NCBI GenBank assembly: GCA_964106915.2
Contig: OZ066915.1
DNA: 64,000 bases
Direction: 5' to 3' (one strand)
From: Podarcis gaigeae
Taxonomy: Eukaryota
Positions 866 through 58,936 of the stretch are shown one piece after another. How positions within the stretch are numbered: the stretch's first letter is position 1; each line of letters begins with the position of its first letter. The translations under genes and the position numbers were made by a program. The notes beneath the pieces are model-generated. The model made no database searches. It was not told the DNA's origin and saw only the letters and a list, made by a program, of their open reading frames with translations.

Positions 866-1274
866 TGTCAGGGAAGAGTTAGAAGTTTCCAGTTTCTCAG
901 AGGGAGAAAGCATTCCCCAAGGGGGGGAAGGAGAGCAGTGAATCTAATAGAAGACAACAACAGGGAGGGACCGGCTGTTCACAGGAAAGGGAAGGGTTCA
1001 GTTCTAGCTCAGATTCGGAGGAGGGGAGATACTAGCCAGCTCTAGCCAGGAGGTTAGAAAAAAGAGCGGGAAAGCAAAAGGAAGGGCGCGTTCGACATTT
1101 TGAGAGTGGCTGGTCACAGAGAAGCAGAGCTCAGAAGGTATCTGAAATAAGTGACTTGAGGAATAATATTTAAGAACCGTTTATAAGATTGTTTTGTTAA
1201 TACGCAATAAAAGTTATAAAAGAACAAGAAGCGTTTGTGTGGGGATCTGAAGAGGACAACGACCAGTCCTGACA
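866..1274 (+). mobile_element. Solo LTR
   Basis: TGTCAGG...CCTGACA inverted termini, 5-bp TSD TCCAG on both sides, internal AATAAA near 1205. Confidence 0.75.
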
Positions 1275-1762
1275 TCCAGATGCTGGACTAGATGGGCCTT
1301 TGGTCTGATCCAGAAGGGCTCTTCTTATGTTCCCATTTTTTTACTGCAAAACTGCTAACAAGTTCACAAATCTATGGATCAATATTTGAGCTCGTTACGG
1401 AGAGCACAACGTACGAGAAGTAAGCTTGGAATCTTGGCAGAATTCATTGAACCTTGTTCTTGAAGGTGAGGACCAAAAAGTGTGAAAAGCCACCTTGCCG
1501 TCTCACCTCTTTGTTAGCTTAATCTCCTCGCTTCTGTTCCCTCTCAGTGTGCAGTGTTCTTGGGTTAAAAGCAAAGGATTGAAGTGGACTGTTAGGTGCT
1601 ACTGCAGCAATATGGAGGAGGCTGGGCGAGCTGAGCTAGGAATAGCCCCATGTCCCATTGTGGTGTGGGCGGTCGTGTTCCTTTCTTCTGACCCAATGCT
1701 TTCTCCCCTGGTTGCCAAGCCCACCCTTAACGTATTTGTGCTCTAAATTATCAACTTGCCAG

Positions 1763-4569
1763 GTGTGAGAACATTACGTTCCAGGATCCAGAGATGGTGC
1801 CAGTGGATGCAGGAAAGAAATTTCGAAACTACTTCCTTATAGACGTCTTAATGAAGAAGATGGGGAAGATCTTCTGCCAAGTCCCTCAAGGTAAAAGGCT
1901 CCTGGCTCCTCCGTGCTGCTGTGTCTCCTGCTCCTGTAGTCAATTGAAGCAACTGCTTTTCCTTTGCCTCATGTAGGGCTGCTGTCTGTCCCACGCTATA
2001 TGGAGGTTAGGAATTGTTTTTGTGCAGTTGCCTTAACAAATTGCAGGAAGCATCTCATTCTGGAGAGATACCCTTGCCTAGAGGGGCTTATAGACTGTTG
2101 AGCGGGGAGAAAAGCGGGAGGCTGGGAATGATCAGCGGCCTGTGTGAGTAGGGGAATAACTGTTTGTGGTGTAAGTGGGAGGCTCAGAACAAGGAGGTTC
2201 TGGGAAAGATGTACTGAAGTACATACTTTAGATCTTTTTAACTGGCATGTTGTCTGGTGAATTCCACTTTGACCGTTTTGGTGTTTGCGCTGAAATTCTG
2301 GTTCTACTGTGCTGTTTGGCCGTAGTGATAAACATTCATTCATTCTGGTTGGGATAGCTGGGATAGCAGGCTTGTTGGGTTTTGAATGTCTTATTGAGAT
2401 TTTTCAATTTCGTTCTGTATGGGACAATGACAATAAAGAGTATTGTATCATATCGTATTCAGATGCACTGAAGAGAGGGGAAAGTTCTGGTGAAAAGGGG
2501 TGAAGGTGGCTGTTGCAATGGGAGTTTGGAGGTGGGAATGGAAGAGGGGGCGGGATAATAGTGTGGGAGAGAGGTAGAGCAGTGGAAGCTTCAAAAGAAA
2601 AGGCTTTTGCAGTATAGCTCAGTTGGCAGAGCAGGAGACTCTTACCCGCAGAGTTGTGAGTTTGAGCCCCATGTTGGGCAAAATATTCCTTCATTGGACT
2701 AGATGCCCCCCCCCAATCCCCTCCAACTCTGCAGTTCTATGAAAAGACAAAAGCATTGAGATTGACTTTTGGAGCTAGTGCAGCACAGTGGTAAAGAGAC
2801 TGAACTGAAAACCAGGAAGTTTCGCCATGACCATTAGCTCACTGGGTAGTCTGAGACATAGGACTATTCCATAAGCTTCTGCCCTGTATCGGCTATCATA
2901 GCAGTGCTGATTCACCATCTTTATGGTTAAAGCTTTGGGAACACCAATATAGATAGGAGCTTCTTTCCACTCACCATCAGAATTTCATACACTGACATAT
3001 CAGAGTTGCCCTGAGTAGGAAGCTGACCACTACTAGGCTGGTGTGCTAGGGCTATGTCTTTATTGATTTCCCCTCCTTCTCATTCTGTATGAACTGGTGA
3101 AATTCTAGAGCTTGGAAAACCACTTTTTACGCTGTGGTTCTGCTCTCATAAGACATCCCTTAAAGTAAAAAGGTAAAGGTAAAGGACCCCTGGACAGTTA
3201 AGTTGAGTCAAAGGCGACTATGGGGTTGCGGTGCTCATCTCGCTTTCAGGCCAAGGTCCACTGACAGCTTTCCGGGTCATGTGGCCAGCATGACTAAACT
3301 GTTTCTGGCGCAGTGGGACTCCGTGACAGAAACCAGAGCACACGAAAACACTGTTTACCTTCCCCCTGCAGCAGTGCCTATTTATCTACTTGCACTGGTG
3401 TACTTTTGAACTGCTAGGTTGGCAGGAGCTGGGACAGAGCAATGAAAGCGCAGGGAATCAAACTGCTGACCTTCTGGTCAGCAAGCCCAAGAGGCTCAGT
3501 GATTTAGACCACAGCGCCACCCGCGCCCCTAAAACATCCATTATGTTGTATGGGAATGAGCAGAGGCCAATTTGTTGTGTAAAATATGCCAAGGCCGAAG
3601 TAGCTGTCTTCACAGGCATGTTTCATGTGTGTAATTGAGCAAATGAAAGATTTTAATTTTGTATAGGGTGTAAATCTTGAGCTGCCACTTGACCACTCCT
3701 GTATTAAAGACTTCCTGCGTATTTGCATAATAAACTAAAACGGTTATTAACATCCCCGTGAGCTAGAAACTGCTGAATTAAAACCAACTGTGGAAGTGGT
3801 CCTGTTCGGTGAGAGGTGGTGACTGCCATGCCAAAGCTCTTCTTAAGGACATGGTTCCATTCAACTCTTGAGAGTAACGTCTGCTATTAACCTGCCCTGA
3901 GCCATTTGAATAAGGCAGGCTGTGAATCGGAGGAATTCCATGCTTGGAACCTACTAAATGTATACGGAACCAAATGCGCAACCTCCTTTTTTAAGCGTTT
4001 TGTTTTCTTGATCTCTCTCTCTCTCTCTCTCTCTTTTTCCTGCAGCTGAATTGATTCTGGACCCCGAGACGGCCCACCCACGCCTCACCGTTTCCTCGGA
4101 CTGCCTCGGCGTCCGGCTCGGAGAGCGCTGGCGGGACCTGCCCGACAGCCCCAAGCGCTTTGACTCCGACTACTGCATTCTGGCCTTGCAGGGTTTCACC
4201 TATGGCCGCCACTACTGGGAAGTGGAGGTGGGGGGCCGGCGGGGGTGGGCTGTGGGGGTGGCTCGCGAATCGGCCCGGCGCAAAGAGAAGTCCGCCGGCA
4301 GCGGCTCCCACCAGAAACGCGAGATCTGGTGCGTGGGGACCAATGGCAAGAAGTACCAGGCTCTGACGACCACTGAGCAGACCTCCCTTTCCCCATCTGA
4401 GAAACTCCGCCGCTTCTGCGTCTTCCTGGACTATGAACGGGGCCAGCTGAGCTTCTACAATGCCGAGAGCATGGGCCATATCCATACCTTCAACGCCTCG
4501 TTCCGCGAGCGCATCTTCCCCTTCTTCCGCATTCTTTCTAAGGGGACCCGCATCAAAATCTGCAATTGA
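1763..4569 (+). CDS. TRIM41: E3 ubiquitin ligase TRIM41, last two coding exons: join(1763..1890,4046..4569); 5' exons not located in window
   Basis: AG/GT-bounded exons splice in frame: [54 protein letters not shown]...[18 protein letters not shown]...[11 protein letters not shown]...[16 protein letters not shown]. These are TRIM41-specific B30.2 motifs; gene is tail-to-tail with RACK1 as in human and chicken. Confidence 0.92.
2612..2740 (+). mobile_element. tRNA-derived SINE (other copies approx. 19375-19500, 22350-22475(-), 27897-28030, 47670-47800)
   Basis: tRNA-like head (AGCTCAGTTGG..GAGACTCTT..TTGAGCCCC) followed by a shared GGACTAGATG..TCCAACTCT tail; several diverged copies. Confidence 0.6.
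3170..3530 (+). mobile_element. Sauria SINE
   Basis: AAGGTAAAGGTAAAGGACCCCTG head and GGGTCATGTGGCCAGCATGACT core; shared with five other copies. Confidence 0.8.
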
Positions 4570-6144
4570 TACGGTTGATGCTGTTTCTCTTGCACGTAGC
4601 TAAATGCAACCCCCTCCCTAGCGATAAATCCTCCTGTCACAGCAGATTGACCCTGACAAGATCCCTGGTCTGTTTCAGTGTTGGACCTTGGAGGATTCCT
4701 TACCTTGCTGTCTTCTTGTGGGTTCGCTCTGAGCAGGGATTCCCACCCCCACTTCCATACATCTATTATTGCACAGATAACCTTTTTTTGGTGCTCGGCC
4801 AGATAAATTTTTAATTCTTTCCTTTGGCTCATTTCCATCCTAGTAAGAATCTCTTTCTCTTCCCCCGTGGGGTTCTCTTTCCTCCTGTCCTCCAGGATCT
4901 CTGGGACCTGGATCTCTCTGGCGAATTGAGGCTCATTTGGCATGCGGTTCTCATGGTGGCTGAGTAGTCGGAGGTTCATTTTGACATTCCAAAGACACTT
5001 GAACTGTCTTACGCCAGGCACTCAGGTCTTGTGGATTGTGTTAACTTTTGGTGCCCAGGCAAGATAGCTAGCCCCAACATTTTCTTGGAGTTGTATCCAG
5101 TCCTTGCTGTGAATCAGTTCGTTCTCTCTCCCCCCCCCCCATCCCCCTGCCTTGCTGTCCCAAGGCACCAGTCACCTCCTGAAACCACCTAATATAGTGG
5201 TGAGTACATCTAAATTCAACTCTACACAGAACTGTCCCGCCTGGTTTCCTGTTCGGGTATGGTTCCTTCTTCAACTTCCTCAGTGTCTTGTCTCCTGATG
5301 ATCTCCTGTTTTGCATCTCCTGTTTACACACACATCAGATTTCATTTTATTTTTATGGAACGCATAGGAGCCAGTTTTGCCCCTCTGTTCCAGGTGTGGT
5401 TTGGATACCCCTGTCTGTCCCTCTTTCCTTTATGTTATCCCCATCTCTTTTACCTGGAGGGAGGTATTCATCAATACTACTAGTGAGATAGATAGAAAGA
5501 TAGATATAACTGCCATTTTGGAGGTGGGGGTGAAGAAATGACAGGTCCAAGGGTTGTTGTTATTTTCTGGGGCACCATTGGAGTGCTGTGGCTCTTGGGA
5601 TGAATGTAATCCCACTAGGAGCTTTGGTGATCAAACGTCATCACTGTTGCCTCACACACCCCTCACCCTTGTAGGACTTAATTAACTTATTTTTAATTGC
5701 TTTTTCCTGTCACGCCCCAGGATCTGCAGTGTGGAGCCTCTTCTCTCCTGACTGCAAGACACTGGAGGCCTTAGCTGTGCCAGCTGTTATGTGTTGGTTC
5801 CCCCGCCCCCTCAATTCTTTTTGGCATTACAGAGCTCCTTTTGAACTATTTTTCGCTATATATGTAAAAAAGACTTACAATGGAGATCTAGTTTTTTGGG
5901 AAAAGTTGAGTAAATAAATACAATTCTACAAGTGAACTCTTGTGTTTATGGTCTGTTCAAATATTGAAAATGGATGGGGGAAAATGGCATGGTGTAGTGT
6001 GTTCTTTTTCTCTTAGGGCTGCCATACAACCTCTGGGTCTTCCTAAGAAAAGCACGGGGTATCCTGGTTTTTACTTTTTGAAATATGGCAACACTTCTCT
6101 CTCCCCACACACACAAACAGAGAGGGAGGGAGGAAGTGTCTATA

Positions 6145-10409: not shown

Positions 10410-20460
<10,051 letters not shown>

Positions 20461-23962: not shown

Positions 23963-24035
23963 GTTTCTGTAGTGTAGTGGTTATCACGTTCGCCTCACAC
24001 GCGAAAGGTCCCTGGTTCGAAACCGGGCAGAAACA
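23963..24035 (+). tRNA. tRNA-Val (CAC)
   Basis: 73-nt GTTTCTGTAGTGTAGTGGTTATCACGTTCGCCT-CAC-ACGCGAAAGGTCCCTGGTTCGAAACCGGGCAGAAACA; cloverleaf intact; T6 Pol III terminator at 24048-24053. Confidence 0.95.
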
Positions 24036-26155: not shown

Positions 26156-26791
26156 ATGGGTCGCGGAAGGCGGCCGGGATCACGGCAGGGAAAGCGTCAA
26201 GGAACTCGGCGGCAGGGAAGGCGTCAAGCAACCCGGCAGGGAATCCGACAGGGAAGCCCCGTACTTCACACCGAGGCAGAAGGCTCGAGCGCCCCTCCGC
26301 CTGCAACTATTTCCGAACCGTCCACCTCTGAATCCTCGGGGAGAGGAAAGAAGCGCCTTTCCGGCCCTTTGTCTCAGCTTATCCTGAAGGCTTTCGAGGG
26401 CTCCAGCTCGCGGAAAGGCGTGTCGCTGGCAGCCCTGAAGAAATTCCTCAGGGAAGGAGGCTACAACCTGAACAGGAACAAAAATAGCCACCTCAAACGG
26501 GAGCTGCATAAACTGGTATCGAATGGGGTCTTGATCCGCTTAACCGGCAGCGGCGCTTCGGGATCCTTCAAGCATGGCGGGAAAACCCTGCCGAAGAAAT
26601 CTGCCAAGCCTGAGGCGAGGAAAGTGAAGAAAACGGCGGCTGCCCACAAAAGGCCGGCGTCGGGTAGCAGGGAGCCGAGAAAGAAGTCGCCGAAGAAACA
26701 GCCGGCCGTTTCTAAACCGAAAGGTGTCCGAAGTAGTAGAAAGACAGCCGTCCCTGGCAGGAGACGCAGCTCGACAAGCATTCAACGGTGA
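26156..26791 (+). CDS. Intronless histone H1-like protein (211 aa) with Arg-rich RQG-repeat N-terminus
   Basis: H15 globular domain LSQLILKA..RKGVSLAALKKFL..GYN..LHKLVSNGVLIRLTGSGASGSFK; K/R-rich tail with SPKK; TATA at 26073-26080; first ATG 26156; histone stem-loop downstream. Confidence 0.85.
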   Translation: MGRGRRPGSRQGKRQGTRRQGRRQATRQGIRQGSPVLHTEAEGSSAPPPATISEPSTSESSGRGKKRLSGPLSQLILKAFEGSSSRKGVSLAALKKFLREGGYNLNRNKNSHLKRELHKLVSNGVLIRLTGSGASGSFKHGGKTLPKKSAKPEARKVKKTAAAHKRPASGSREPRKKSPKKQPAVSKPKGVRSSRKTAVPGRRRSSTSIQR

Positions 26792-26844: not shown

Positions 26845-26884
26845 GGCTCTTTTAAGAGCCACTCAAGACTCGCTGAAAGAGCTG
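26845..26884 (+). terminator. Histone 3' stem-loop plus histone downstream element (U7 site)
   Basis: AAAA-GGCTCT-TTTA-AGAGCC-AC at 26845-26860; AAAGAGCTG at 26876-26884. Confidence 0.92.
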
Positions 26885-28208: not shown

Positions 28209-28676
28209 GGCTCTGAAAAGAGCCTCTGGGTTTTCTGACACCATGCAGAGAAATGTCCTCATTGTCCTTTGACAGGGACATGACCGGATTTTACTGTCGC
28301 ACTGGAAGATCCAGCAGCTTCACCACTGCTTGTGTTCATCTTTTCAGTTTTGTTAACAGTAGCAAAGCTTGAACATCACCCTGCACAACGGCAACTCCTT
28401 CTACCAGTTTCTGCAGCTCCTCATCATTCTGCACAACAGGATGGATGTGGTGTAGGATAATTCACTGCTTTTAGCCAGCCAGCTCCAGGATTTCAGCACT
28501 GAGATATTCCAGGACTGCAGCCAGATAAACAGGGGCTCCTGCTCCAATTTGCTTTGCATACTTCCCTTTCTGAAGCAGCCTCTGTACTCTAACCACTGGA
28601 AAAGGCAACCTTGCCCTTGTGGACTGAGTCCTTGTCTTGACTCTCATTTCCCCCCAGTCGTGCCACAAGCAGACAC
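28209..28676 (-). pseudogene. Histone H2A pseudogene with retained stem-loop
   Basis: [39 protein letters not shown] then ..QNDEELQKL..; start is GTG, frameshift near codon 10, stops and deletions; GGCTCTTTTCAGAGCC at 28224-28209; CCAAT boxes at 28791-28842. Confidence 0.88.
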
Positions 28677-29029
28677 AATTCTTCTTTCCATCCTCCTCTA
28701 CAGCAAAAGCACCATGTGAATGTTATGGCTTCAAAGTGCCTCATTCATTGACTGAAGTGGGGCAGGGAGGGAATAAGCCTGCCTAAATCTGATTGGTCAA
28801 GGCCTGTAAACCAATAAGGAAAGAGATTCTGATATCTCCAATAAGGAAAAAAGGGCACATTATTCTCATTGAGAACTATCAAGTCTGTGTTCATATATTT
28901 ATTTATAAAGTCATTTGCACTGTGTACTGCTTTTCATTTAAAAAAAACCCAAAGCAGATTACAATAACCATGCACATATACAATTAAAAAAAAACCCATA
29001 GAAATTTAAAAACAAGAGATCTTCAGCTA

Positions 29030-32267: not shown

Positions 32268-32859
32268 TTCTCCCTCCCATCTGACTGTGTTGGTCTAGTT
32301 GCTCTGGGCAGCTTCTAACATATATAAAAATAGAACATTAAACATATTTTTTTAAAAAACCTTCCTTATACAGTGCTTCCTTCAAATGTCTTCTAAAGGT
32401 TGTATAGTTACTTATCGCCTTGGCTCGGGGGTCACTTAACTCCATACCGTCCAACAATTCTCCGATGAAAATAGGACGTCCTTCCATGCCCTCCAATATT
32501 TATCAGGCAAAAATAGGGATGTCCTAAGGAAAAGTGGGACATTCTGGGATCAAATCAGAAACCAGGATGGTTTCTGTAAATCTGGGACTGTCCCTGGGAA
32601 ACAGGGACACTTGGAGGGTCTGCAGGCATCTGTGGGGCTGCAGTGAGAACTCTTTGGAAGTGGCCATGGCTTTGAATCGAAACCTATGAATAGATAAAAT
32701 ACTCTGGCTCATAAGACAGTAAAACCACTCTTGCAGGCTGCTTGTTTGGGCTTATTAGTTATCTTTATTGAATTTTACATAGTTCTGAAAAAAGACACAC
32801 ATCTATATTAGCAAAATGCAACCTTTCTAAGGCCTTTCCTGCCTTGGGCTTTGGTACTG

Positions 32860-33840
32860 CTATCTCCTTCGCCTAGCTCTGCGCTTGGGCCTTTGTGGGG
32901 GAAACGTAGCTTTCCCCTTGGGGCTTTGTTCTTTGGCAGAGGAAACATCTCTGCTCCTGCTGAATCTTGTTTTCTTTGCACTGGGTGTTTCCTTGCTGTA
33001 GGGCTTCCCCACACCTTTCGGAGAGGCTGTGCTGTTGCTCTTAGAAGACCTTGACCTTTCCGAAGTGCTTTTGCTGCTAGCCCTTTTCGATTTCTCCGCA
33101 GAGGCAGGCCTGCTCCTGAGGTTCCTGGTGGTCTTCAAAGCAGACGCAACATTGCTGCTGGAACAGCCCTGACCTTCGGCTTTGCTATCCGAGTTGTCGG
33201 ACGTGCTAGAAGCAGCTTTTTGGGCTAGCCTCTGTGACCTCCGGGCAGTGCCATTTTTCCTGGGGCATCGTCTCCTCCTGTTGGAGATTCGTAGTTTCTG
33301 GTGAGCCTCTCTCGTCGTATCCGCAGAGCTCTTGGCTCCCTCCACTTCTCCTTTCGTTTTTGTGCCAGTGCGTGTGCCATACCTTCGCCCAACTCGGACT
33401 TTCCTTGCCCCTGCAGTCCTTTTGGGGTTTTCAAATATTTTGCTGGCCTTGCTCTGGTGCTTCCTGATGACGAAAAACTTTGAGCCATCGCTGTGAGTCA
33501 TGCGCACCACAGCGCCTTTCAACACCAGGGCGTGCATTTTCCTCTGAGTTCTGGGGCTTTGCCTCCTCACATTGTAGCCCTTGGCGCTGAGGACTTCCTT
33601 CAGCTCTGTGAGGGTGAGGCCGTTCGACGCACTTGCGGCAATCGCTTGCACAACGAGCCCTGAGATATTAGGGAGGGGCTTGACGGTCTTACCAGGATTC
33701 AAGCTTCTCCTCCTTTGCATTGACCTCGTAATTATTGACGACTTTTCGGGGAAACGAGTTTCTCCTCTCTTGCCTCGGCCTGGCCTCTTTCTCCTAGGAA
33801 CTGGGGCCTGTGTTCCTCCAGGCGTCATAACCTCAATCAT
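32860..33840 (-). CDS. Intronless H1-related, protamine-like (sperm nuclear basic protein-like) protein, 326 aa
   Basis: Divergent winged-helix PNISGLVVQAIAAS..GLTLTELKEVLSAKGYNV..MHALVLKGAVVRM..GS.FFVI; long R/K/S-rich tails ending RPKRRARRRR; TATAAA 33944-33939; AATAAA 32769-32764; first ATG 33840 with A at -3. Confidence 0.75.
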   Translation of the reverse strand: MIEVMTPGGTQAPVPRRKRPGRGKRGETRFPEKSSIITRSMQRRRSLNPGKTVKPLPNISGLVVQAIAASASNGLTLTELKEVLSAKGYNVRRQSPRTQRKMHALVLKGAVVRMTHSDGSKFFVIRKHQSKASKIFENPKRTAGARKVRVGRRYGTRTGTKTKGEVEGAKSSADTTREAHQKLRISNRRRRCPRKNGTARRSQRLAQKAASSTSDNSDSKAEGQGCSSSNVASALKTTRNLRSRPASAEKSKRASSKSTSERSRSSKSNSTASPKGVGKPYSKETPSAKKTRFSRSRDVSSAKEQSPKGKATFPPQRPKRRARRRR

Positions 33841-35821
33841 TGTCACTTCTTGTGGGGTTGCTGCCCTTCTTTGGGACTCTCTTACTCACTGCATGGAGCC
33901 TCTGATGAGACTGACTTGTGTGACTCCTGTCCAAAGTATTTATAGATGGAACGGAATCAATCCCAGCCTGCTTCTGTTCCCAACAGCCAATCACTTTCCT
34001 CCGTTTTGTTCTTGAGAACTCATCTTTCATAAACTCGCCTCATCTGCTCCATCCCCCTTGCCCTATTAAAAAAAGTAGAGCTGGCATGGAAATTTAGCAG
34101 GTTACACTTTCCCCCACTAGACATCTCCATGTCAGGAAAAGCTTTTTTCTTTTCTTTTCAATACTAGATCGCTACTTCGTAAAACCACAAAAAGCAAGAG
34201 CACCTACTTTATTATTAATTTGGGCTAACAGTTGGAGCTGATGGGAGGCACTCCACACCAGAGAGGCCACCAGAGCCTCAAGAAACAGCCCTGCTTTTTC
34301 CTTAACAATGGCCTCGCCTGCCTACCTGCCGCTCAAAGGAGGTGTGTGAATGGGAAGGGAAGCTGAAGAGCCTCCATTTCCCAGCAGCTCACATTCTCCA
34401 GAGCAGGCTTTTTACAAATGTTCCATCCCAGTGTTGCCTTCTGAAACAGGGCTAGGAAACCAGTAGCACTCCCAAATGTTGTTGGAACTCCATCAGTCCC
34501 AGCCGGCAGAGACAATGATCAGAGTGATGGGAGCTTTTGGCCAATAGTATCTGGAGGCCCACAGTCCCCTCAAGATGCTGTAAAGGAAATATAAGCCCTG
34601 TTAAGTTAGCCAAGACAAGGGGCAGGCATGTGTGATATACAACATTTTGACCGCTGGTCCTGATGCTGATCTGCATGAGTGGGTCCATCTCTTCTTCATG
34701 GGATCTTTGCATATGCATGTGGTAGACACGTTGACTCTGCACAGAAGAGCAGAATCAACTAATGGAGGTCAGGAATGGGACTAGCAGGTACAACCCCACA
34801 ACCCCTAACCCACATTTACTATTCTGTTTGGTCCATTGATCAGGGTGATAAGACGATGATAATCAAAATAAAAAGGGCGAGGTTGATAATCGTATTTAAA
34901 AAGGAGTACACCTATGGTATTGGGGAAACACCTGCCTTATTCCTGTAAGTAATTGTGTCATCACAATGTTGTTCTGTGATGCAACCATGTGACCAGGCTT
35001 CCTACAGAACTATCACATGGTTCAGTAACTGGTCAGCTCTGAGCTGCAGAAGCCTCGCTTAGCAGTTTTGCCCAACCTTGGGCCCCCAGCTGTTTTCGGA
35101 CTACAACTCCCACCATCCCTAGCTAGCAAGCCCAGTGGTCAGGGATGTTGGGAATTATAGTCCGAAAACAGCTGGAGACCAAAGGTTGGGAAACACTGCT
35201 CACTTAATTAGGCTTTGGGTGTGGTCAGGAGGACTAGATAAGGGTAATGAAAAGGGAAAGGGATTTCTTCCTCAGGGAAAAACAAAAAAAAACCTATTGG
35301 ATTGGGGTGGAGTTCAGTCTCTGGCAACTCCCCCTTAAAAGAATCATGGCCAGAAGACCACTGGAGAGCTGCCGTGCAGAATATATTGAACTAGATGGTT
35401 AAAAAGTATGACATAGTAAAAGGCTTCTAAAGTCAGAAGAACATAAAAAGAACCTCCCAGGTCAGACTGGAAGCCTAATCTCACTAGTCAAGCATCTTGT
35501 TTTCTCTGTGGCCCTTCGGATCCCTGTGGAAGCCCACAAGCAACAGTCCACTCTCCGTTTGTGAATCACAGAAACTAATATTCAGAAGCTTATATTATTG
35601 TATTGTAGCACAGCCATTGCAGCTAGTAGCCACTCATAGCTTTATCCTGCATGCATGTGGCTAATCCCTTTTGAAACCTATCAGATCCTCCAAGTCCAGA
35701 CCCACTATTTCCCAGGTATGCTTCTGATTTAGAGAAAAAGTCCTGGTTTCTGACTTGATCCCGGAATGTCCCACTTTTCCTTAGGATGTCCCTATTTTCA
35801 TTGGAGAAATGTTGGAGGGTA

Positions 35822-57400: not shown

Positions 57401-58773
57401 CAGCAGCAGCGGCGGCAGCGGGGCTGTGAGGAGGGGTTGCCTGGCGCGCCCTCCGCGGCTCTTGTTAAGTTGTGGGTTGACATAGCAGATGACACAGCGA
57501 TTTCTCCAAGTAGCTCTTTATTTTGTAAGCTGGAGTAGAACTAACTGCAAACAGCTCAGCCAGCCTGCTTTTATAGGCAGCCGGCTGTCAACATTGTAGC
57601 AACAACAGCCCAGAGTTCCCGCCTAAAATAACTGACGTGGACCTGAGTGAAAACTATCTACAGACCTGAGTGAAAACTATATACAGTATCCCCCTGCTGG
57701 CCCAGGGTGAAACTTCACTACATAACAGCCCTGACGCATGGGGACCGCGGCGAGCGCTGAGAGCCTTCAGCCCAGACGCGCGCACAGCTCGTCGGTTCCG
57801 CGAGACATGGGGCTCTGCTACAGCCTGCGCCCGAGGCTCTCCGGCGACTCCAGAGGCGGCGAGCGCGCCCCCCTGATGTTGTGCCCGGTGCGGCCGGCCC
57901 CCCCTACGCTACGCCACTGGGTCAAATAAAACAACATAATTCCTTCTCCTCTATCCATCCGACTCTGAGATTCAATTGCTCGTTTTCAACTTTGTTCATT
58001 TACACACTGACTTTGACCTTTAATGACCACATGCCCTTAATAGAGGCTCCTGTTACGAGATTTTTCTGTTGCCTAAGCAACCTGTTCAAGACCAATTCTT
58101 TCTAGAATATTCCAATAAGTCAAGAAGGCAGCAGGCAGATAGCACGTGCCAGTGCAACTGGTTACGCTGGCCCTCAGCCGCAACACTGTCTGGTTAACAC
58201 TGATATTGCCCTCCTTCCTTCCGTGACCTCTTTCCTTCTCATCTTCTCCACCCTGCAGCAAATGTAACCCTGGATCCGGACACAGCGAACAACGAGCTCA
58301 TCCTGTCTGCGGACCGGAAGAACGTCATACAAGGCTTCACATGGCACAGCCTGCCTGACAGCCCCCTGAGATTCAGCCTCGAGCGCTGCGTTTTGGGAAG
58401 CGAGGGCTTTTGCTCAGGAAGACACTACTGGGAAGTGGAGGTGGGCGAAGAGGGGTACTGGGCCGTGGGGCTGGCAAGGGGTTCCGTGAAGAGGAAGGAG
58501 TGCCTCAGCCTTGACCCCAGCGAAGGGATCTGGGCCGTGGAGAAGTGCCGGGTCCAGTACCAAGCTCTTACCGTCCCCGAGACGCCCCTGTCTTTGCGGA
58601 AGAGACCCAGGAAACTTGGGATTTACTTGGACTACGAGAGGGGGCAAGTGGCGTTTCATGACGTCAACCACAAGACACCCATCTTCACTTTCCCCTCTGC
58701 TGCTTTCGACGGGGAGGTGGTCTTCCCTTTCCTGCAGGTCGGGGTGGGATGCTGGCTTCGACTGTGCCCCTGA
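51470..58773 (+). CDS. Butyrophilin-like protein lacking IgV, 351 aa: join(51470..51569,51990..52271,54080..54184,55001..55021,56247..56279,58259..58773)
   Basis: Leader MRSFLFILTIFFVIP; IgC APLISIEGYQDRGIRIVCRSSGWYPKPEILW..LTCVVRN; TM WIAGLCVSLLALLGFILLLLYLF; 21-nt and 33-nt linker exons; B30.2 [31 protein letters not shown]; all introns GT-AG phase 1; 1056 nt open. Confidence 0.85.
52460..52801 (+). mobile_element. Sauria SINE
   Basis: AAAGGTAAAGGTAAAGGGACCCC head and family core. Confidence 0.82.
53054..53301. mobile_element. hAT-type MITE (8155 family)
   Basis: TIRs plus TSD ATCTAGTC/ATCTAGTT. Confidence 0.8.
54210..54557 (+). mobile_element. Sauria SINE
   Basis: Family head and core; inserted about 25 nt after the BTN TM-exon donor. 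Confidence 0.82.
55473..55715 (+). mobile_element. L2-like LINE 3' fragment
   Basis: APTLWNALPPDVKE..TFRRHLKAAL; (TAT)n tail. Confidence 0.72.
57149..57919. mobile_element. hAT element carrying captured GC-rich sequence (Pack-TIR-like)
   Basis: TIR CAGCGGCGTAGC/GCTACGCCACTG, perfect 8-bp TSD GGTCAAAT; ends match 30770-30937 but the interior differs. Confidence 0.85.
57463..57727 (-). mobile_element. Solo LTR nested inside the hAT element
   Basis: TGTTA...TAACA termini, TSD GCTCT/GCCCT, reverse-complement similarity to 49382-49645. Confidence 0.78.
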
Positions 58774-58936
58774 GACCTTCCTTGTGTGATGTTTAATGGG
58801 CAAGCAAGGCATGACACAGCGGACTTGGAAGGCACCTCAAAAGTCATCTCTGCTTATGCACTGCAGATGGGATGTGTGCATCTATTGCTTTATGTTTTCC
58901 TGCGCTTTTAAATATTTTGTGGGAAGCAGCCTAGAG

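Follow-up and report, generated by a model that had tools for sequence, protein, structure and literature searches.

A divergent, arginine-shifted H1 gene of squamates as a candidate germ-cell linker histone

Among the germ-cell H1 variants, H1t has an mRNA that keeps the histone stem-loop. In the H1 nomenclature, H1.6 (H1t) is a member of the histone cluster (PMC9526256) and H1.7 (H1T2) is an orphan gene, and clear orthologs of the germ-cell variants are stated to be restricted to mammals (PMC3380720). H1T2 has a very divergent core and a long SR-rich tail, and lacks the S/TPKK motif (PMC7788777). HILS1 lacks S/TPXK motifs and condenses chromatin poorly, and rat Hils1 sits in an intron of Sgca (PMC6069787). 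The protamine-like (PL) proteins of shellfish contain 35–50 mol% Arg+Lys (PMC12159748), the core of the Spisula PL protein has been likened to H5/H1.0 (PMC11607694), and the wing motif of the PL-I of Mullus is described as dispensable when nucleosomes are absent (PMC4584325). The chicken TRIM region adjoins GNB2L1 (PMC8813856), and a TRIM/BTN-linked histone proto-cluster has been proposed to be ancestral to both HIST1 and HIST3 (PMC13396413).

The window analysed here is a stretch of 64,000 nucleotides from the lizard Podarcis gaigeae. It contains a divergent H1 gene that is single-copy in its own genome, with the following features:

32860..33840, minus strand: intronless H1-variant ORF of 326 aa (translation, orthologs, single copy)
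33679..33840, minus strand: N-terminal tail, residues 1–54, R 18.5%, K 9.3% (composition, alignment)
33457..33678, minus strand: predicted H1 winged-helix core, residues 55–128, with the GxGASGS wing replaced (PDB matches, model, profile; pN/pS 0.06)
32863..33456, minus strand: C-terminal tail, residues 129–326, R 16, K 13, S 18%, without S/TPKK, fast evolving (pN/pS 0.88)
33937..33944, minus strand: TATA box TATAAATA (sequence; contig 5ʹ ends at 33902, 33916 and 33929)
33987..33991, plus strand: candidate CCAAT box, in the opposite orientation to the gene (sequence)
33886..33894, minus strand: putative upstream ORF of two codons in the 5ʹ UTR (sequence)
32764..32769, minus strand: AATAAA polyadenylation signal, 90 nt past the stop codon (sequence; 32749 is the contig end in two studies)

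The original prediction described an intronless 326-aa ORF with Arg/Lys/Ser motifs, a TATA and CCAAT promoter, and an AATAAA without a histone stem-loop, and each of these elements is present. The ORF runs from 33840 to 32860 with no need for an intron, and the quoted motifs occur in its translation (overall R 14.7, K 11.0, S 14.1%). The CCAAT box is found in inverted orientation. No histone stem-loop occurs in the 459 nt downstream of the gene, where the best match to the 16-nt stem-loop of a neighbouring H1 has five mismatches; the same pattern recovered the true stem-loops at 26845 and 28224. Rfam, which reported a tRNA alone and overlooked the true histone stem-loops as well, is uninformative on this point. 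An interspersed repeat at 32330–32625, just past the 3ʹ end of the gene, is matched by many contigs in every run examined.

Eighteen sequencing runs contain the gene's words; 12 of these are guessed to be RNA, and none of the 18 is recorded as RNA or assigned to a tissue. We compared runs X1, X5, X9 and X11 over the gene. The guessed-RNA contigs span 32749–33902 (X1), 32794–33929 (X11) and 32760–33916 (X5), and a contig of X9, whose cover is partial, also starts at 32749, 15 nt past the AATAAA. The upstream flank is bare in X1, and X5 has thin cover (depth 3–6) upstream of the TATA box. In the window, TATAAA, AATAAA and CCAAT occur 0.5, 1.0 and 1.0 times per kb per strand, and TATAAA or AATAAA would lie at the observed distances from a contig end at ~1.5% and 1.9% of random points, respectively. 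The placing of these motifs at the contig ends is less expected by chance than the motifs alone. The contigs fit a TATA-driven, polyadenylated, unspliced mRNA, which we take as a weak hint, and the mRNA is likely to be polyadenylated.

The 200 kb on each side of the gene contain olfactory receptors, many RING and PRY-SPRY exons, a C2H2 zinc-finger gene, RACK1 and a tRNA gene. The histone neighbours within this distance are a second Arg-rich H1 and four H2A genes, of which three are intact and one is broken. Those in the window, with other landmarks, are:

26156..26791, plus strand: second Arg-rich H1, 211 aa, wing motif kept (stem-loop at 26845–26860)
28209..28690, minus strand: broken H2A with stops and a frameshift, an intact stem-loop and upstream CCAAT boxes (sequence)
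14950..19940, minus strand: RACK1 (GNB2L1), with approximate limits set by the exons detected
4057–4400, 44023–44547, 58270–58800 and 61485–61982: PRY-SPRY exons of TRIM/butyrophilin-like genes
23963–24035: tRNA gene (Rfam)

The PRY-SPRY exons, tRNA and RACK1 are ordered as in the chicken MHC TRIM region, and the contig also carries the MHC class I cluster, at a distance of 12 Mb. The locus matches the chicken TRIM region and resembles the TRIM/BTN-linked proto-cluster. We infer that the H1 variant arose in place from an H1 of the cluster, with the stem-loop exchanged for poly(A). The second H1 (R 13, K 12, S 14%) has Arg-Gln-Gly repeats in its N-tail and a perfect stem-loop. The three intact H2A genes (C2:109.10 Mb, L049) also have stem-loops and encode 158 aa with a Lys/Ala/Pro-rich C-terminal extension of ~35 aa; they possibly represent a long-tailed H2A variant.

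The predicted winged-helix core places the protein in the linker histone H1/H5 family. The protein itself has no match to PF00538 at E ≤ 1 in Pfam, but nine of 11 family members match this domain, and a phmmer search with residues 52–128 matched GH1 and H1.1–H1.4 in the PDB (E 5e-7 to 4e-6). With the family profile, GH1 and H1.1–H1.4 were matched at E ~1e-14, and no H5 or H1.0 row appeared at E ≤ 1. The better of two AlphaFold models has three helices and a hairpin at residues 59–125 (pLDDT ~65–73); the other, made first, is poor (mean pLDDT 42, no hairpin). In a Foldseek search with the better model, the top four rows are H1 (E 3e-3 to 5e-2), with no row at E ≤ 0.001. These matches and the predicted fold bear out the claim of a very divergent H1 core, although the lack of an H15 match, named in the original prediction as a ground for rejecting it, holds for the protein itself and not for most of the family. 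By class, canonical H1 reaches 50–58 bits with the family profile, compared with 12 bits for H1.0 and 7 for H1x. The core is 30–33% identical to canonical replication-dependent H1 and 36% identical to the neighbouring H1 at 26156–26791. A canonical replication-dependent H1 is the likely origin, as judged from these sequence comparisons.

A search with a core profile gave 16 matches among 7992 candidates scored. Four are unnamed and 12 are named: Podarcis, Rhineura, Salvator, Hemicordylus, Varanus, Python, Pseudonaja, Crotalus, Pogona, Phrynocephalus, Gekko and Heteronotia. We take all 12 named genera to be squamates, ranging from geckos to snakes. There are no mammals among the 16 matches, and the family appears, provisionally and within word-limited searches, to be restricted to squamates. 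Three Podarcis species have near-identical proteins annotated “histone H1-like” or “H15 domain”, and NCBI names the orthologs “histone H1.x-like”. In a tree that included 11 family members and left out P0014–P0019 and the mammalian H1t, H1T2, HILS1 and PL sequences, the family is a single, long-stemmed clade (100/100), and its place among H1s has weak support (41/72). The lizard also has at least six dispersed copies of another divergent H1 type (C31, C23, C15 and C16; L013, L015–L018, L021), which we label H1oo-like; the four copies that the tree includes group together (100/100), and several look shortened or intron-bearing.

Between the Podarcis gaigeae protein and nine non-Podarcis members, identity is 57–68% in the core and 19–52% in the tail. 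A comparison with run X1, for which 38 of 42 differences are listed, gave five synonymous changes and one nonsynonymous change in the core (p = 0.004, pN/pS 0.06) and a pN/pS of 0.88 in the tail. The core is under purifying selection. The indels listed in the runs examined are of 9 and 3 nt within the ORF, where the frame is kept, and of 11 nt in the UTRs. Thirteen of the 17 members have an open frame of 312–371 aa, the other four being shorter gene models. The GxGASGS wing and S/TPKK motifs are absent in all 17, and the replacement wing is invariant across the aligned members. The Arg clusters quoted in the original prediction are largely specific to Podarcis in the alignment; a basic C-terminal end is common to most full-length members. 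The ORF itself, which had been expected to persist in related species, has orthologs from geckos to snakes.

What might this protein do? Our best reading is a germline H1 subtype of squamates, not previously described, that resembles H1T2 and HILS1 by convergence. We propose that it probably replaces other H1s in germ cells, with an atypical mode of nucleosome binding and a phosphorylatable Arg/Ser tail that holds DNA, and that it helps to loosen chromatin before protamine packing. Exchanging the stem-loop for AATAAA would free expression from S phase, so that transcription could take place in meiotic or post-meiotic cells. Because the wing motif is absent in all family members, dyad binding may be atypical; the altered wing would weaken normal binding at the nucleosome dyad. 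DNA would be held electrostatically by the long Arg/Ser tail, with Ser phosphorylation tuning this contact. The replacement H1 could in turn loosen or remodel germ-cell chromatin ahead of protamine packing. Such a protein would be a convergent functional analogue of mammalian H1T2 and HILS1, and not a bulk protein of mature sperm.

A bolder reading is conceivable, and we hold it only tentatively. The variant would be a squamate-evolved spermatid transition protein, derived from a replication-dependent H1 by loss of the wing and gain of poly(A) and an Arg/Ser tail, that binds nucleosome-free DNA during histone removal. Amniotes would then have an independent intermediate between H1 and protamine that is still living, beside a separate pair of HILS1 genes and the second Arg-rich, stem-loop H1 in an ancestral MHC-linked histone cluster.

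Is expression of the H1 variant confined to spermatids? As a guide to tissue, we used runs X1, X5, X11 and X10 on a locus with two exons of the AKAP_110 family, which we take to be sperm markers on account of a role in the fibrous sheath. Two tandem AKAP_110-family genes lie at C9:85.81–85.82 Mb, and a third at C9:7.82 Mb. X5 and X11 behave as testis RNA, because both AKAP_110-family exons are deeply covered and unique intergenic DNA is bare. In contrast, X1 has no cover on either exon, despite its full-length contig over the H1 variant. X10, from the same organism and with 6% of the gene's words, shows only fragments of cover on the marker locus (depth 2–5). X1 stands for four runs of study P1, and the other three hold similar shares of the gene. 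X1 could derive from ovary, from testis that was immature or out of season, from embryo or from soma, and missing contig cover is not the same as absence.

Since X1 is without the testis signature, expression may not be restricted to spermatids or to males. The gene could accordingly encode a germline H1 of both sexes, an early (pre-meiotic or meiotic) H1, or an H1 that is also somatic or embryonic, with no special role in spermatids. The bare upstream flank of the X1 contig, the three similar sister runs, and the lack of a CRE half-site (TGACGT) in the 460 nt upstream of the gene are consistent with this. However, two of the three full-length holders tested carry the sperm-marker exons, and the Arg/Ser shift, the loss of S/TPKK and the fast-evolving tail match known male-germline H1s. 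We consider wider expression unlikely. The prediction of an uncharacterised squamate spermatid chromatin protein stands in so far as the gene is a conserved, apparently polyadenylated, Arg-shifted H1 derivative; the one full-length holder without a testis signature weighs against its spermatid part.

The original prediction went further and proposed a protamine-like sperm nuclear basic protein. If so, the variant would be a PL-I-type protein or precursor that replaces histones in mature sperm. The tripartite H1 layout with basic tails, the basic C-terminus of most full-length members, the missing stem-loop and the transcript in two sperm-marker libraries all fit such a protein. So do the loss of the wing in all 17 members, given its described dispensability in Mullus (PMC4584325), and an R/(R+K) of 0.57, compared with 0.06–0.10 in canonical H1, H1.0 and H1x. 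Nonetheless, this part of the prediction fails on basicity, which is too weak for a PL-I protein. Arg+Lys is 25.8% in the lizard protein and 18.7–26.1% across 17 family rows (21.1–26.1% without the four short models P0010, P0012, P0014 and P0015), as against the 35–50 mol% of PL proteins and 28–31% in the same lizard's canonical H1s. Net charge per residue is 0.20, below the 0.25–0.27 of canonical H1, and the longest Arg run is just 2–4 in the 11 members counted. The family has swapped Lys/Ala for Arg/Ser and gained no charge. The core, too, is nearer to replication-dependent H1 than to H1.0/H5, to which the Spisula PL core has been likened (PMC11607694). The H1-variant contigs in X5 and X11 have a depth of 19–59 (1000–5000 in single marker contigs), where one would expect more of a bulk sperm protein, but contig depth cannot rank genes and we do not count this point. 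A search of the lizard's own genome with protamine P1 gave no match and is uninformative. On basicity and core type, we regard PL-I identity as improbable.

It is more doubtful still that the variant is a true squamate ortholog of H1t (H1.6) or H1T2 (H1.7) that has diverged past easy recognition. The locus, with its TRIM/B30.2, olfactory receptor, zinc-finger, tRNA and H2A genes, resembles the proposed HIST1/HIST3 proto-cluster (PMC13396413), H1.6 is a cluster member, and H1T2 too has a long SR-rich tail (PMC7788777). In the Atlas, a cluster named “testis-specific H1 histone” ranks seventh at 0.76, which is a lead only, all matches being below 0.9. Against orthology are the absence of mammals among the 16 matches, the lack of a Walker motif or long SR repeat in the sequence, and the published mammal restriction of clear orthologs (PMC3380720). 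The variant shares with H1t a histone mini-cluster and not the stem-loop. The H1t stem-loop fits the neighbour at 26156 better, and that second H1, by its sequence, would be the better H1t analogue. The PFK and zf-C3Hc3H families, presumed neighbours of H1-7, have candidate members 90–100 Mb away on C2.

We also consider HILS1 identity unlikely. A sarcoglycan alpha/epsilon gene, which has a collagen gene for a neighbour, contains two other divergent H1 genes without stem-loops in the interval from its transmembrane exon to its cytoplasmic exon:

C25:36456694, plus strand, and C25:36460615, minus strand: divergent H1 pair in the sarcoglycan intron (L020, L019)

We take the sarcoglycan gene to be SGCA through COL1A1 linkage. 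The pair are likely duplicated lizard counterparts of HILS1, though HILS1 orthologs have been described as mammal-restricted. The H1 variant is on another contig, and its core is 23–28% identical to the pair. Because this other H1 pair occupies the SGCA intron, the variant probably does not correspond to mammalian HILS1, as far as genomic position and sequence indicate.

Decay into a non-functional H1 copy is extremely improbable: the missed PF00538, a tail pN/pS near 1 and the broken H2A 4 kb away might suggest it, but the open frame of most members, the frame-keeping ORF indels and the purifying selection on the core already contradict it.

Our literature search, with most subscription papers and older work on reptile sperm proteins outside its reach, found no paper on the squamate gene; the accessible parts of PMC12216123 and PMC8812575 contain nothing on reptile H1, and databases name the gene only “histone H1-like”. 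The squamate H1 adds a new subtype to a known theme, and involves no new mechanism. Germ-cell H1s are stated to be restricted to mammals (PMC3380720), and the squamate subtype is present from geckos to snakes. A family with an invariant, remodelled wing provides a natural test of whether the Lys-to-Arg shift, S/TPKK loss and wing loss recur convergently in sperm-line H1s. It also indicates that, in reptiles as well, specialised histones emerged from the TRIM/BTN-linked histone cluster.

How does the proposed germline H1 compare with the described systems? Like the PL-I proteins of Mullus, Spisula and Mytilus, it combines an H1 core with Arg/Lys/Ser tails, a poly(A)-type message and a wing that is lost or dispensable. 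Unlike them, it has 26% Arg+Lys rather than 35–50% and a core of the replication-dependent type. With HILS1 (H1.9) it shares a divergent H1 sequence, the lack of S/TPXK and the lack of a stem-loop, but it lies outside the SGCA intron and is twice as long (326 versus 169 aa). Canonical H1 (H1.1–H1.5) and H1t have the nearest core by sequence; in contrast to them, the variant has no stem-loop or wing motif, carries an Arg/Ser tail in place of an Ala/Lys tail, and is ~100 aa longer. The resemblance to H1T2 (H1.7, H1FNT, HANP1) lies in a very divergent core and a long Ser/Arg-rich tail without S/TPKK (PMC7788777), whereas the squamate variant shows no Walker motif or SR-repeat block, has no mammalian match, and sits in a histone mini-cluster where H1.7 is an orphan gene.
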